Assembly (NCBI GenBank): GCA_963813815.1
Contig: CAWFAD010000005.1
Span: 1-64,000 of the forward strand
Length of the DNA: 64,000 nucleotides
Direction: 5' to 3'
DNA from: an uncultured bacterium
Lineage (GTDB): Bacteria; Krumholzibacteriota; Krumholzibacteriia; Krumholzibacteriales; Krumholzibacteriaceae
Shown: positions 39,001 to 45,000 of the stretch, one piece after another
Layout of the letters: every line of letters begins with the position of its first letter
Numbering within the stretch: position 1 is the stretch's first letter
Program-made: the position numbers

Positions 39001-42000
39001 CGAACTCCTCATCGAGAAAGCGGTAGCCGCTGCGTCCTATGATGACGCTCACGTGGCCCGGAAGGACGAACCCGTCGATCCTCCCCGGCCCGCGCGCGAG
39101 AAGGAAGCGCAGCGCCGGAGGAATCACGCGAAGGGACGGAATGATGAAGAAATTCCGAGGAGGATCCGCCGCCAGCGCCGCGGCGATCGGCGCCGCGGTC
39201 GTCTCGAAGCCGACGGCCATGAGCACGACGGACGCGCCGGGACGCTCGCGCGCAATCGCGATCGCGTCGGACGGCGAATAAACGACCCGGACGTCGGCTC
39301 CCTCGGCGCGCGCCCGCTCGAGGGAGCCCTCCGTCGCCGGAACGCGCATCATGTCGCCGAAGGTCGCGAGAACGGTGTTCTCGCGGCGCGCCGCAGCCAT
39401 CGCGCGATCGACGTCGCGCGCCGGACACACGCAGACGGGGCAACCCGGTCCCGCGATGAGGCGCACGCCGCCGGGCAGGAGCGAGCGGATGCCGGCGCGC
39501 GCGATGGCGTGCTCGTGCGTGCCGCACACGTGCATGAGGGTGATCGCGCGGTCGACACGGAGCGCCCCTATGGCGCGGGCGATCGCGGCCACCGCCTCCG
39601 GGGAGCTCCATCCGTCGATCGCGCGCGGATCGATCACGCCGGGCCTTCCCCCCTCCCGGCCTCGTAGACCCGCCGGATGAGATCGAGCGTCTCGAGCGCC
39701 TCGCGCTCGTCGATGCGCTCGATGGCGTAGCCGGCGTGGATGAGGACGTAATCGCCGATCGCCACGTTATCGATCAAATCGAGGCGGATGCGTTTCCGCA
39801 CCGAGCTGCTCGCCGCGACGGCGTCGTTGCCGTCGCGCTCGACGATCAGCATGGGAATTCCGAGACACATCAGCGTCCCCCCGCCGAGGCGGCGAATCGC
39901 TCGACCCAGGCCTCGAATCGATCGAGCCCCTCTCCGGTCACGCACGAAAGCTCGACGATGTCGAGACGCGGCTGTATTTCGAGCGCCTCGCGCCGCGCCT
40001 TCGCGACGTCGAACGAAACGTGGGGCAGCAGGTCGATCTTGTTCAGCACGAGAAGCTGCGCCTCGTGAAACATGAGGGGATACTTCTTCGGTTTGTCGTC
40101 CCCCTCCGAAACGCTCAGCAGCATCACGCGGGCGTCCTCCCCGAGATCGAACTCCGCCGGACAGACGAGGTTCCCCACGTTCTCGATGAGCAAAAGATCG
40201 ATCGCGTCGAGATCGAATCGGTGGAGCGCCGAGTGCACCATCGCCGCGTCGAGATGGCACACGCCGCCCGTCTGTATCTGGTACACCGGAACGCCGAGGG
40301 CCGCGACGCGCTCGGCGTCGGCGGTTCCTTGAATGTCCCCCTCGATGACGCCCACGGCCCGATGCTTCGCGAGCAGGGGGATGGCGCGGACGAGGAGCGA
40401 CGTTTTGCCGGCCCCCGGAGCGCTCATGAGATTGAGCGTCGCGACGCCGTGGGAACGCAGATGCTCTCGGTTCTCCGCCGCGATCACCCGGTTCCGGTCC
40501 CGCAGATCCTCTCCGATCCGTATTTCGTGCATCGCCCCTTCCTCTATTCCTTCGCGCTCTCGTCCCCCGGCTCGTCGTCCGTCAGGATGTAGTCGACTTC
40601 CATTTCCCGTCCGCCGAGAATATCGATCTCGGTCGAGCCGCACCTCTCGCAGGCGAAAACGAAATTTGCCGGCCGCGCCTCCGCCGCGCACCCCCGGCAC
40701 CGGACGCGGAGCGGAACGCTCTCGCATTCGAGACGACCGCCCTGGGCGACGGTGCCCGGCGCGAGCGCCTCGAAGGCGAAGCTCAGCGCGTCGATATTGA
40801 CCCCGGCCATCTCGCCGATGCGCAGATGCACGACGCGGACGCGCTCGCCGCCCGCCTCGCGAGCCGCGCGCCCGACGATGGCGAGCAGATTTCCCATGAG
40901 AGCGGTTTCATGCATTCGGCCGCTTCCGTTCGCCGAGCCCGCGCGATACGCGCGTCGAGGCACGCCCCAAAACCTCCCCCGCGATCTCCTCGACGAGTCC
41001 CGGCAGCGCCCCGGCGACGGCCTCCGTGCACTCTTCGCCGAGCGTCAGCGCGTCGGCCACCTGCACGGCGTACACCTTCACCTCGGCCGGCATCGCCAGT
41101 CCGAGCCGGCGCCCGAGCGCGAGCGCGGTCACGAGATCGATGTCGTGGAGGGAGGCGAGCCTCGCGGTGATGCGGAGATCGTCGGGCTCGAGGCGGAAGA
41201 CGGTTCCCGGATCCTCTCCCTCGAGCTGGATCGAGTCGATGATAAAAGCGCGGTCGTACCCGCGCAGCAGCTCGACGAGATCGAGCCCCGCGCTCGCCGA
41301 TTCGCGGCAATCGGCGGCGCCGTCGACCCGGCCGGCGAGCGCCCGGACGGCGTACACGCCGACGCCGTCGTCCCGGAGAATGGTGTTGCCGAGACCGAGA
41401 ATGAGCGTTTTCACGATCGCCCCCCCTGCCGCCGCGCTCCTCTCACGACCGAGAGATCGTGCGGAGCGTCTCGCCGGCGCTGTTTTTCAATTCGACAACG
41501 AGAGGCATCTGACCGGGGAGGCTGTGCGTCGCGCAGCTGAAACAGGGATCGAAGATGCGGAACGCCATCTCGACCGTGTTGAGAAGCCCTTCGGTGACCG
41601 CGCCGCCGGCGCCGATGAACTTCTGGGCGGCCTTCTTGACCGCCATCGAGATCGGCGCGTTGTTGTTCGTCGTGCCGACGATGAGGTTCGCCTTCGTGAC
41701 GATGCCCCGTTCGTCGGTGACGAAGTGGTGCGTGAGCGTCCCGCGCGGCGCTTCGACGATGCCCACTCCCTCGGACGGCGTCGCCGACGGGATGACGCGG
41801 ACGTTCGGATCCAGTATCTCCGGATCGGCGACGAGCTCGGCGAGACGTTCCGCCGCGTAGACAAGCTCGATGAGCCGCGCCCAGTGGTGGGCCATGAGCT
41901 TGTGCACGGGCTTGCCGCCGAAGGTCGCGTACATCCTCTCGTACGCCTCCTGCGCCTTCGGGGTCGCCATGCCGACCGAGGCGTTCAGCCGCGCGAGCGG

Positions 42001-45000
42001 CGCCGCCTGATAGATCGAGGTGCCCTTCCCTTCCTTGAAGCCCTGCCAACCGAGCTTCTTGAGGTACGGGAACTTGAGATACGAGTACGGCTCGACGTGC
42101 TCGGCGACGTGCTCGAGGTACTCCGATTCGCGGTACCGGTCGATCTCCGCGCCCTCCGGATCGACGACGCGGACCGTCCCGTCGTAGAGCGTGACGCGGT
42201 TGCGGTCGTCGACGAGCCCCATGTAGTTCGTTACGAGCTCGAAGCCGTCGCCGAGGATGAGATCGAGGTAGGCCTTGTTCTTAAGCACGATGTCGTCGAA
42301 AAGCTTGAGACCAAGCTCGCCGAAGGAAACCAGCCCCGGAACGAAACCCTTGATCGTTTCGAGATCCGCCGGCGCGAGCGCCCGCGAGACCCCGCCCGGA
42401 AGGTTCCAGACCGGATGCGTCGCCCGCCCGCCGACCATCTGCTGGATGAGCTGCGTGATCTCGCGCTGGCGGATCACCTCTCGCCCGAGATCGAGGCCCA
42501 CCTTGCCGATGAGGCCGAGGATGTTGCGCTCGGCCGGGGGAGCGCCCGGCCCGACGACGAAATCGGGCGCCGCGAGCGCGTAGAAATGCGCCGTGTGGCT
42601 GTGCATGAAGTGCGCCATGTAGTACAGCTCGCGCAGCTTCGCGGCCACCGCCGGAATCTTCACCTTGTATACTGCATCTACGGCCTTACCCGAGGCCATG
42701 TGGTGTGCGGCCGGTCAAACCCCGCAGATGCGCGTGACGACCCTCGGTATCTCCTCGACGGGCAGACCTTCGACGAACTTTTCGAATCCCCTCAGCTCGG
42801 GGATCTGGAGGTACGCGTTCTCAACCGCGCCCTCGTCGTTCACGAAGATCATGATCTTCCCGTGCCCTTCGAGGCGAGTGATCGGGTCGATCGCGATGCG
42901 CTTCATATCCTCTTCCTCCTCGGTATCGATGACGCGAGGCTGAACCGGTGGAGCGTCGTGAGCGGCGCCACCACCGTGTCGAGCGTCGCATTGATCTCGT
43001 TTTCCTCCTTGCCGTCGATGACGGACGCGAGCGCGCTCAGCATCTTGAGCCCCTGATCCGTCACGCCGTCGAGCGGCCCGTAGCAGCCCCGGCAGGGCAC
43101 CCCCGACTTGATGCAGCGCGAGCCGCACCCCGAACGCGTCGCCGGACCGAGGCAGAGGTACCCCTGCTCGAGAAAGCACGTTTCGGGATCGGGGAGCTTC
43201 TCGTGCGTGCGGTAGATCCGCGTGATCTTTTTTTCGCTCTTTATGCGCGCGCATTCGTCGCAGAGGGCGCGTTCGCCGGCGCCGATCACGCTCCCCTTCC
43301 GAGGCAGCATGTCGTCTGCGATGAGCCCGATCGCCGAATAGATCTGGAGGGAGGCGGGCGGACAGCCGGGGATCGTGTAATCGACCTCGACCACCTGCGA
43401 GAGCGTCTTGACGGTATTGTAGAAGCGCGGCAGCTCGAGCTCGAGCCCGTCCTGCACGGTCCGTTCCTCCGGCAACACTCCGCCCGGGTTGTCGGTCGAT
43501 TCCGATTCGATATAAACGCGGCGCAACGTCTCGTCGCGCGTGAACATGTTCGAGAGCCCCGGGATGCCCCCGACGTGGGCGCAGGCGCCGAGAGCGATCA
43601 TCATTTTCCCCTTCCGGCGGAGGAGCTTCGCGATCTCCTCGTTTTCCGAATTGCGGATGGCGCCGCTGAAGAACACCGCGTCGAGAAAACCGTCGGGCAT
43701 GGCGCGCACGTCGTCGTACTTGAAATCCATCGCGATCGGCCAGAAGAGGATGTCGGCCGCCCCCGCGATCTCGAGAATCTTTTCGTGCGTGTCGAGAATC
43801 GCGACGTCGCATCCCCCGCACGCCGCTCCCCAATATATGCCGATCTTGAGCTTCATCTCGTCATACTCCGGTTTCTTGCGCCGCCGCGCCTTCGCCGTGC
43901 AGGACGTCCCGCTTCATGCTTTCGAGCACCGACTCCTTGAGAGCGAGCGGGCCGAGGGCGCGGATCTGCTCGGTGAACTCGTCGACGACGCGTCCGAAGC
44001 GATCCCCCTCCGATGCGGAGATCCACTCGAGACGCACCCTCTCGGGCTCGATGCCGTACTCGGGAAGGACGCGTCTGAGGAGGAGATACCGCCGCAGCGC
44101 CTTGTAATTTCCCTCCAGATAATGGCAATCCCCCGGGTGGCATCCGCCGATGAGCACCCCGTCGGCTCCCTCCGCGAGCGCCGTCAGGATGAACACGGGA
44201 TCCACGCGACCGCTGCACATGACGCGTATCGACCGGACGTTCGGGCTGTACTTCACGCGCGCGGTCCCTGCCAGATCGGCGCCCGTATAGGTGCACCAGT
44301 TGCAGAGGAACCCCACGATTCTCGGTTCAAACGCCATAGTTCGTTCCCTCTCGACTTCGCCCTCAGGTCACCGACAGCAGACCCTCGATCTCGGCGAGTA
44401 TCTGCTCGTTGCCGAAATGCTTGGCCTTGATCGCGTTGCTCGGGCACGCCGCCACGCACGTGCCGCATCCCTTGCAGAGCGCCTCGTTGATAACGCTGAC
44501 CTTCTTCTCCTCGTCGAACCTGATCGCGAGATACGGGCAGAGATTGTTGCAGATGCGGCAGCCCGAGCAGCGCTCCTCGTCGATCTCGGCCGTCGCAGCC
44601 TCGATCTCGATCTGCCCGCGCATGATCATGGAGAGCACGGCGCTCGAGGCCGCTGACGCCTGCGCGACCGTGTCGGGGATGTCCTTCGGCGACTGGCACG
44701 CGCCGGCGATGAAAACGCCGTCCGTCGCCGTCGACACCGGCCCGAGCTTCGGATGCTTTTCGATGATGAAGCCGTCCTTGCCGACGCTCACGCTGCATTT
44801 CTTCGCGAGCTCGGGAAGCCCCGCGGGCGCCTCGAGACCCGTGCAGAGAATCACCATGTCGACGGGAATGCGCCGCACGACGCCGACGAGCGTATCCTCG
44901 ACGCGCACGACGAGTTTGCCCTTTTCCCCCTCGTGTATCGGCAGGTCGGTGATCTCGCCGACCTTTCCGCGGATGAAACGGACGTCCTCGCCGAGCAGGC

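Follow-up and report, generated by a model that had tools for sequence, protein, structure and literature searches.

A probable selenocysteine at the second N-terminal cysteine of an Mvh-type hydrogenase large subunit in a Krumholzibacteriaceae genome and in other bacterial phyla

The window (the whole 64,000-nucleotide stretch of DNA that was analysed, from an uncultured member of the Krumholzibacteriaceae) contains a one-strand run of genes in the order hdrC-hdrB-hdrA-mvhD-mvhG-mvhA, with genes for a HycI-type endopeptidase and HypA-HypD next downstream; all are on the minus strand. The hdr genes encode a 4Fe-4S dicluster protein (hdrC, 47259..47834; PF13183), a protein with two CCG domains (hdrB, 46383..47258; PF02754, 101 bits), and a flavoprotein subunit with Fer4 and Pyr_redox Pfam families (hdrA, 44363..46381), the last in an unbroken frame of 672 codons that scores 777.7 bits against NCBIfam HdrA2, under the cut-off. 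The iron-sulfur subunit gene mvhD (43861..44337; PF02662, 185 bits) is likewise unbroken and of the Cys type. The hydrogenase small subunit gene mvhG (42903..43856; PF01058) has VhuG as its best NCBIfam match (221 bits, under the cut-off), and its stop overlaps the start of mvhA. Downstream of mvhA are the HycI-type hydrogenase maturation endopeptidase gene (40908..41414; PF01750) and a hypA-hypB-hypC-hypD block (38534..40963) for Ni-Fe cofactor assembly, comprising hypA (ORF 40544-40963; PF01155), hypB (39870-40727; PF02492), hypC (39634-39870; PF01455, its start set at MCLGIP from the ORF), and hypD (38534-39637; PF01924).

The [NiFe] hydrogenase large subunit gene, mvhA (41443..42906, minus strand), spans 487 codons via one UGA before its terminal TGA. 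Its single internal stop is the TGA at codon 64 (42717..42715 as read on the minus strand), the proposed selenocysteine (Sec) codon. PF00374 is matched at 124.8 bits (cut-off 25.8), and 69 hydrogenase sequences from the PDB are matched at E ≤ 0.001; in phmmer searches the top PDB match is 7t2r_D, "NiFe hydrogenase large subunit" (381 bits, E 9.6e-113), and 5odc_F MvhA aligns over about residues 2-486 (369 bits, E 3.8e-109). The best NCBIfam match is VhuA (395.5 bits, under the 800-bit equivalog cut-off). [quoted passage not shown] In the C-terminal motif, DPCFSCATH (residues 453-461; C455, C458, and H461; 41524..41550), both Cys residues of DPCFSC are kept and encoded by TGC/TGT, and UGA is absent. 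Translation and the structure-chain alignments thus agree with the first-pass annotation, which had put an in-frame TGA where the N-terminal motif has its second Cys and had described an all-Cys C-terminal motif and a full MvhA of 487 residues upon read-through. With MvhG, MvhD, and HdrABC encoded alongside, we consider mvhA to be supported as the gene of an Mvh-type large subunit that is Group 3c-like, the "3c" label resting on gene context and best matches.

The position of the UGA sets this gene apart from the well-known [NiFeSe] hydrogenases. Those enzymes, namely VhuA/VhuU and FruA of Methanococcus (Group 3) and Hys of Desulfovibrio and Desulfomicrobium (Group 1a; PDB 1cc1, 2wpn, 5jsh), also have a [NiFe] large subunit with one UGA-encoded Sec ligand, and Vhu, like the present enzyme, is Mvh-type and feeds Hdr; however, their Sec occupies the first Cys of the C-terminal DPCxxC as a terminal Ni ligand. 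With DPCFSC and no UGA in its C-terminal motif, mvhA is ruled out as a classical DPUxxC-type [NiFeSe] hydrogenase gene; two further genera of the family do have a classical-type paralogue with DPU-LSC. The UGA at the second Cys of CXXC makes mvhA an N-terminal CXXU-type gene by definition.

Gene callers split mvhA, and UGA-64 could accordingly be a genuine stop that yields a 63-residue peptide and a separate 418-residue protein starting at M70, or nothing functional. Among public protein data, 117 of the 120 best short matches stop exactly before codon 64, and split large subunits do exist, as in VhuA/VhuU of Methanococcus (model NF041786). Yet selection operates on both sides of the codon: 78 pairs among 13 congeners give dN/dS values of 0.077 before it (codons 1-63) and 0.112 after it (codons 65-486). 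A split would leave codons 65-69, between the UGA and the next ATG, untranslated, whereas their dN is 0 with a dS of 0.337 over the 78 within-genus pairs, from which we infer that the stretch is translated. P-x-x-H-H after the UGA is kept across phyla despite synonymous changes, and in 98 loci purifying selection has kept both the TGA and the two parts of the gene; a split would, moreover, cost a metal ligand and conserved His residues. We therefore regard a divided or dead gene as exceedingly unlikely; the apparently broken mvhA is almost certainly whole, its stop being read as Sec.

A bacterial SECIS element is a stem-loop just 3' of the UGA within the coding frame, with the usual spacing and a loop G. 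Behind UGA-64 the centroid fold contains a SECIS-like hairpin, AUGGCCU-CGGGUA-AGGCCGU (42680..42699, minus strand), with a 7-bp stem that begins 15 nt past the UGA and a 6-nt loop; the sequence that the first-pass annotation had placed after a 17-nt spacer is indeed found in the gene at that distance from the TGA (GGCCTCGGGTAAGGCC). Across 80 distinct Sec-type segments, a stem of at least 5 bp occurs in all and one of at least 6 bp in 79, and the middle of the loop lies 21-31 nt away from the U of the UGA. The arms take the form GGCC..GGCC in most clades, GGCGUC..GGCGCU in Nitrospirota, CUUCGC..GCGAAG in a Zixibacteria/Coatesbacteria group, and GGCUU..AAGCC in one Cloacimonas-labelled locus. 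In 82 Sec-type genes, codon diversity reaches its gene-wide minimum at codons 65-75 (0.31 vs. a gene mean of 0.528), and for the order's 19 Sec-type genes at codons 69-77 (0.078 vs. a mean of 0.384); the 17 Cys-type genes have no dip in synonymous diversity at the hairpin region (0.576 vs. 0.533). Pairing at the hairpin holds in 83.9% of cells, compared with at most 47% when partners are slid. A stem of at least 5 bp also occurs at the hairpin site in 8 of 17 Cys-type orthologues; the two Ala codons (GCN...GCN) behind MA[SA]GKA can pair on their own. There is modest covariation, with both-side changes in 3 of 7 pairs only, the Ala codons of MA[SA]GKA also fixing the two invariant core pairs, and the folding energy of the 69-nt stretch is uninformative (z-score 0.23 vs. 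shuffles). On these sequence patterns, the downstream hairpin behaves like a SECIS element, with RNA-level constraint in the Sec forms only.

The genome encodes the machinery that such an element would serve. A tRNA-Sec (C12:62142-62235) scores 71.3 bits on RF01852 and has the anticodon TCA and a G discriminator, with 8 bp in its acceptor stem and 5 bp in its T stem. SelB (353 bits, cut-off 242), SelA (506 bits, cut-off 268), and SelD (367 bits, above the cut-off) were all identified, SelD itself with one in-frame TGA of the Sec type (...SCAG*AAK); these results bear out the earlier assignment of the four components, including the in-frame UGA of SelD. TGA remains a stop in this genome, terminating 895 of 1482 long stop-free frames as well as mvhA itself. 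Sequence by itself cannot separate Sec from Cys at UGA-64, which might be decoded as Cys by a UCA tRNA of the tRNA-ReC (selC*) type, or by tRNA-Sec charged with Cys under selenium scarcity; the mature enzyme would then be an ordinary all-Cys [NiFe] hydrogenase. PMC13582414 cautions that genomes with tRNA-ReC may translate UGA codons of this kind as Cys. In the present genome, though, the sole UCA tRNA among 48 tRNAs (ARAGORN, 91%-complete assembly) is the one with the tRNA-Sec shape and RF01852 score, and SelA, SelB, and SelD accompany it. Permanent decoding as Cys would also give no reason for keeping a UGA and a hairpin in place of UGC, a change that several relatives have made. Decoding as Cys thus appears unlikely.

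Within the genus of the window, every one of the 15 loci that cover codon 64 has the TGA there, which extends the earlier observation among congeners; a sixteenth genome (62% complete) is without an mvhA match. In the order as a whole, 21 of 38 loci examined have TGA at this codon and 17 have TGC or TGT. The first-pass annotation had taken the Sec form for a switch at the level of the genus or a single clade, but TGA is also found in six genomes of the order from five other genera, and a DNA pattern including the TGA matched at least 119 species genomes. From these matches, 77 of 80 fetched loci proved to be real mvhA genes with the TGA and hairpin, under about ten phylum labels and including three cultured strains. 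The read-through frame is complete in 63 of the 77, and every full-length C-terminus listed among the TGA loci has DPCxxC. The neighborhood is largely retained: counting loci with enough DNA, Sec-type mvhA has MvhG upstream in 70/70, MvhD nearby in 61/67, HdrA in 54/63, and a HycI-type endopeptidase downstream in 55/67. By comparison with the truncated public matches, the 120 best full-length public matches all have Cys at the codon-64 position.

The first-pass annotation had also proposed that Cys was switched to Sec in this genus. SelA is encoded in 52/52 genomes of the order, so its Cys orthologues still have the Sec machinery, and one of these orthologues (L016) retains an intact hairpin behind its TGC; together these make loss of Sec to Cys the likelier direction. 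In a tree with biased sampling, for which the order of the window was the sole source of Cys forms, the Sec forms from other phyla that share the hairpin sequence fall outside the clade of the order. A change from Cys to Sec in this genus is therefore unlikely, and the Cys orthologues in the order are more likely to represent secondary Sec-to-Cys changes, as judged from these sequences.

We propose that mvhA is an intact selenoprotein gene in which UGA-64 is decoded as a Sec that bridges Ni and Fe, and give this mechanism as a whole a probability of roughly 85%. Under this reading, the hairpin 15 nt past UGA-64 would recruit SelB·GTP·Sec-tRNASec, and Sec insertion would replace termination to give a precursor of 487 residues. 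HypA-D, encoded just downstream, and other Hyp proteins would load the NiFe(CO)(CN)2 center. Maturation of [NiFe] hydrogenases is known to involve cleavage of a C-terminal tail by an endopeptidase; the 26 residues after H461 (41446..41523, minus strand) are the expected substrate, which the adjacent HycI-type protease would cut off. In the mature site, C61 and C455 would be the terminal Ni ligands, whereas the Se of U64 and the S of C458 would bridge Ni and Fe. With MvhG and MvhD, electrons from H2 would pass to HdrABC, where flavin-based bifurcation would deliver them to ferredoxin and to a disulfide acceptor. Binding of SelB, insertion of Sec, the geometry of the bridge, the electron acceptors, and whatever effect Se may have on catalysis are all predictions here. 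Sec in an N-terminal CXXU is likewise predicted to bridge Ni and Fe in PMC13582414, consistent with the bridging position claimed in the first-pass annotation.

Alternatively, Sec could be inserted while the UGA serves mainly to tie hydrogenase synthesis to selenium supply, with no particular catalytic gain from Se. Cys orthologues do coexist with intact Sec machinery in the order, and an engineered Sec at the equivalent N-terminal Cys, the second of its motif, brought no clear benefit in E. coli Hyd-1: the C79U variant (PMC8020662, PNAS 2021) kept only 13% of native activity, its apparent KM for H2 was lowered, and it had almost no activity at 10% O2 and fared poorly under prolonged O2. That variant, however, is an artificial change in an O2-tolerant Group 1d enzyme that is not naturally adapted to Se (PMC8020662). 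No selenium-free backup mvhA was found in the genome (one strong match, the second at only 24 bits), so selenium limitation would simply abolish the enzyme, and long retention over about ten phylum labels favors a property of the protein. A mainly regulatory UGA is thus very unlikely, and we retain Sec as a bridging ligand as the preferred reading.

A close counterpart is MvhAGD-HdrABC of Methanothermococcus thermolithotrophicus (PDB 5odc), which shares the subunit set and the gene neighborhood and whose large subunit has the 369-bit similarity, here over residues 2-464, but its ligands are all Cys. The principle of an N-terminal CXXU is already in print. Baltazar et al. (2011), as cited in PMC13582414, described three CXXU-type [NiFeSe] sequences, two of Group 1 and one of Group 3, so that the earlier remark on a previous sighting in Group 3 sequence data is upheld; these share the Sec at the second N-terminal Cys and the predicted Ni-Fe bridge. 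As represented there, that report comprised three sequences without an enzyme study, whereas the present form, with its conserved SECIS-like hairpin, extends to at least 119 species genomes. PMC13582414 (Front Microbiol 2026) also gives an in silico account of 47 Group 4 [NiFeSe] hydrogenase sequences, about 0.2% of that group, whose Sec is N-terminal and which resemble the present set in having a downstream SECIS-like stem-loop, a Sec/Cys mosaic, and hairpin remnants in related Cys forms. The Group 4 enzymes are membrane-bound and energy-converting, whereas the one described here is soluble, of the Mvh type, and a partner of HdrABC, and its Sec form is far more frequent among near relatives than Group 4 CXXU is within its group. 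Framing the finding as a new clade would be too narrow: the Sec form with this hairpin is spread over many bacterial phyla and is frequent in anaerobic bacteria.

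The gene for the Mvh-type [NiFe] hydrogenase large subunit, mvhA (42906..41443, minus strand), lies in a minus-strand gene cluster (47834 -> 38534) that, according to open reading frames and Pfam matches, encodes in order hdrC, hdrB, hdrA, mvhD, mvhG, mvhA, a HycI-type protease, hypA, hypB, hypC, and hypD. Under translation table 11 the mvhA frame is cut by a single in-frame TGA, at codon 64 (42717..42715, minus strand), and when read through it encodes 487 residues. MvhA is a near end-to-end match to solved large subunits (7t2r_D, 381 bits; MvhA 5odc_F, 369 bits), and codon 64 stands opposite the second cysteine of RICG[IV]C in the printed alignments to both. 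The four ligand positions would be C61, U64 (the proposed selenocysteine, Sec), C455, and C458, followed by H461 and a 26-residue tail; this confirms the first-pass annotation, which placed the TGA at the second N-terminal cysteine of an enzyme with an all-cysteine C-terminal motif. The best NCBIfam matches are VhuA (MvhA), VhuG (MvhG), HdrA2/VhuD (MvhD), and HdrA2 (HdrA), all below the equivalog cut-offs, and the label ‘Group 3c’ therefore derives from gene context and best matches. Passages of a recent review (PMC13188914) include both MvhD and HdrA among the selenoprotein families. In the window, the frames of MvhD (43861-44337) and HdrA (44363-46381) are uninterrupted; thus, UGA in this operon is confined to the large subunit.

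The genome to which the window belongs encodes the machinery for Sec insertion. One tRNA with a UCA anticodon was identified among the 48 tRNAs found (assembly 91% complete); it scores 71.3 bits on RF01852, and its ARAGORN drawing shows a long extra arm, a G discriminator, and acceptor and T stems of 8 and 5 bp, respectively. SelA, SelB, and SelD all score above curated cut-offs. The SelD gene (G000:C10:174414-175340, locus L042) has an in-frame TGA of its own, between ...SCAG and AAK, so that the genome contains at least two UGA-Sec genes. A separate ARAGORN call in the window (21683-21773, minus strand), a 91-nt ‘tRNA-?(Arg|Thr)’ whose anticodon has two bases (cg) and whose stems contain several mismatches, is probably a false positive in G+C-rich DNA.

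TGA terminates 895 of the 1482 long stop-free frames as well as mvhA itself, which contradicts its general reassignment as a sense codon. Across 13 congeners (78 pairs), dN/dS for mvhA is 0.077 on the 5′ side of the TGA and 0.112 on the 3′ side, and the five codons from the TGA to the next ATG have a dN of 0 and a dS of 0.337. Selection on both sides rules out a dead gene, and the constraint on those five codons rules out a split into two proteins with translation restarting at M70. Based on the Sec machinery, the selection values, and the hairpin described below, we consider it very likely (probability about 0.85) that the codon-64 UGA is read as selenocysteine. In a comparison with sequencing runs, there was no difference at 42715-42717 among the 40 rows listed (178 further rows exist). 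Two RNA-library contigs span the TGA (X18 record 16, corresponding to 42589-42817 with 9 differences; X20 record 30, corresponding to 42403-42906 with 38 differences); these derive from relatives, only contigs were compared, and DNA carry-over is possible, so they are at most a hint of transcription across this site.

Starting fifteen nt after the UGA is a SECIS-like hairpin, AUGGCCU-CGGGUA-AGGCCGU (42699..42680, minus strand). The folding energy of the 69-nt stretch, which is G+C-rich, is unremarkable (z-score 0.23; 112 of 200 shuffles fold equally well), and was for that reason set aside as evidence in favor of comparative tests. A stem of at least 5 bp occurs at the same distance in all 80 distinct segments from orthologues with TGA at codon 64 (Sec forms), and one of at least 6 bp in 79 of these. 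It also occurs at this place in 8 of the 17 orthologues with TGC or TGT (Cys forms), because two conserved alanine codons force part of the stem. Third-codon positions that are free to vary and extend the stem (Ala71, Lys74, and Ala75), as well as the loop codon Ser72, are near-frozen in the Sec forms and variable in the Cys forms. Synonymous-codon diversity reaches its lowest value in the gene at codons 65-75 across all 82 Sec-form genes (0.31 vs. a gene mean of 0.528), and at codons 69-77 in the 19 Sec forms of the order Krumholzibacteriales (0.078 vs. 0.384); for the 17 Cys forms, the value at codons 65-79 is 0.576 vs. a gene mean of 0.533. In an ungapped alignment, which scores the hairpin as unpaired in three clades where it is shifted by 1-3 nt, 83.9% of cells are paired vs. 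at most 47% with slid partners. Covariation on this alignment is weak (three of seven pairs alter on both sides), with the core pairs fixed by the alanine codons. Clades with other amino acids in this region build a different hairpin at almost the same place. We read the hairpin as a putative functional bacterial SECIS element and a candidate for SelB binding.

All 15 loci of the same genus that cover codon 64 have TGA there. In a survey of 52 genomes of the order, 38 loci were examined, with TGA at this codon in 21 and TGC or TGT in 17. Outside the genus, TGA was found in six genomes from five other genera of the order, one of which is in another family; genome G058 had at first been counted as well and was rejected, its codon being TGT and the TGA its terminal stop. 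SelA is encoded in all 52 genomes (51 over the cut-off), and thus loss of the Sec trait does not account for the Cys forms. A paralogue of the large subunit, with 41% identity to MvhA of the window, is encoded in two further genera of the family and combines an all-cysteine N-terminal RICGICP with a classical C-terminal DP-TGA-LSC (L173, G023:C1:1893000-1896000; L174, G041:C15:19600-22600); one bacterial family therefore has both Sec placements.

Public annotation systematically renders Sec-type mvhA as a 63-residue N-terminal stub, ending before the TGA, plus a 5′-truncated protein. With the stub as query, 595 clusters of 34-111 residues were retrieved at E ≤ 1e-5; among the best 120, R-x-C-G-x is the exact terminus of 117, and 103 have a length of precisely 63 residues. 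Stubs are named ‘F420-non-reducing hydrogenase large subunit’ or ‘hypothetical protein’ in their sources (e.g., WP_277995594.1). Among longer proteins the same query matched at least 7993 clusters, with cysteine at the position in all 120 listed. The 120th match has 103 bits in both lists, so that stub and full-length clusters are approximately equal in number among near relatives; clustering at 50% identity lacks the resolution for a Sec:Cys ratio, and 11 full-length representatives were used only as tree outgroups.

A search of species-representative genomes with a DNA pattern containing the TGA yielded at least 119 matching stretches. Of 80 loci fetched, 77 are mvhA with TGA and three are chance matches (L086, L122, and L133). 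Read-through frames are complete in 63 of the 77; the other 14 reach a contig end or have a further stop. Four loci from other genomes (L084, L098, L103, and L129) have an additional premature stop after 76-327 codons, which could reflect assembly-error frameshifts or real decay. DPCxxC is present in every full-length C-terminus printed. Where sufficient DNA was available, MvhG is encoded upstream in 70/70 loci, MvhD in 61/67, and HdrA in 54/63, with a maturation protease downstream in 55/67. Based on record titles and the tree, the loci are labeled Chloroflexota (mostly Dehalococcoidia), Bacillota, Krumholzibacteriota, Acidobacteriota, Nitrospirota, Thermodesulfobacteriota, Myxococcota, Zixibacteria, Coatesbacteria, and Latescibacteria. 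Cultured carriers are Desulfoscipio geothermicus DSM 3669, Desulfotruncus alcoholivorax DSM 16058, and Desulforudis sp. Tu-874, all three with SelA over the cut-off; for Desulfitibacter alkalitolerans, a 63-residue fragment is on record as a RefSeq ‘hypothetical protein.’

A quick maximum-likelihood tree was built from 110 rows, with Sec forms from everywhere and Cys forms solely from this order. In it, the main clade of the order (43 rows, SH-aLRT 100) divides into a Cys clade of 11 rows and a second clade of 32 rows, 31 of them Sec forms and one, L016, a Cys form. The window’s genome falls in the Krumholzibacteriota-labeled clade. The next branches outside are Sec clades labeled Acidobacteriota/Myxococcota and Bacillota, with identical hairpin sequence. 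L016 (G020:C180), nested among Sec forms, has TGC at codon 64 and, behind it, the Sec-type hairpin in unaltered form (GGCCTCGGGTAAGGCC); it resembles a gene that recently changed from Sec to Cys and kept a remnant of its SECIS. Taken together, the nesting, the L016 hairpin, and the presence of SelA in 52/52 genomes favor Sec-to-Cys replacement inside a Sec-type lineage; given that the Cys forms in the tree come from this order only, no global ancestral state follows.

The CxxU arrangement, with Sec at the second N-terminal cysteine, has precedents. Passages of PMC13582414 (2026) describe 47 sequences of Group 4 in which the N-terminal motif is CXXU, UXXC, or UXXU, predict Sec at CXXU to bridge Ni and Fe, and give Sec in Groups 1 and 3 as C-terminal except for two Group 1 and one Group 3 CXXU sequences of Baltazar et al. 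(2011). UxxC is the sole form listed for MvhA/VhuA/VhuU in the corresponding passages of the 2026 selenoproteome review (PMC13188914), and MvhA2 of Desulfobacterium autotrophicum is called selenocysteine-containing in passages of PMC2702500 that do not give the Sec position. Passages of PMC11291895 concern Asgard VhuU only and have no bearing on Sec position, as is also the case for PMC5947623, PMC1242214, and bioRxiv 10.64898/2026.04.11.717937. All four Cys-to-Sec variants of Escherichia coli Hyd-1 have been made; C79U, the equivalent of codon 64, is described in passages of that study as retaining 13% of native activity, with a decreased apparent KM for H2 and almost no activity at 10% O2 (PMC8020662). 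Thus, mvhA of the window is one more example of a type previously noted in print; the TGA form is real, with a wider spread and a smaller novelty than the claim of a new clade had proposed. We found no report of a wide CxxU distribution in Group 3c in the literature searched, and subscription journals or supplements may contain one; the true extent, conserved SECIS, and cultured carriers of CxxU mvhA appear not to have been reported.

To our knowledge, selenium is always a terminal Ni ligand in the natural [NiFeSe] hydrogenases studied to date, and a single engineered E. coli variant is the only source we know of for its effect at the bridging position. The window’s mvhA belongs to a large natural family with selenium predicted at the bridge. 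Close Cys orthologues within the order and classical DPUxxC paralogues within the family offer natural comparison sets, and the three cultured carriers with SelA make a bench test feasible. Surveys of hydrogenases and selenoproteomes undercount Sec-type mvhA because annotation splits the gene. We tentatively propose, as a possibility rather than an expectation, that CxxU enzymes constitute a major class of natural [NiFeSe] hydrogenases that has gone unreported until now: a single mvhA lineage with Sec and SECIS that spread through approximately ten bacterial phyla, roughly matches the Cys form in frequency among near relatives, and is ancestral to the Cys orthologues of the order (through repeated loss of Sec with the machinery kept), in which bridging selenium would confer a distinct catalytic property on the bifurcating Mvh–Hdr complex, such as higher affinity for H2. 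If so, this property would be relevant in energy-limited anoxic habitats.
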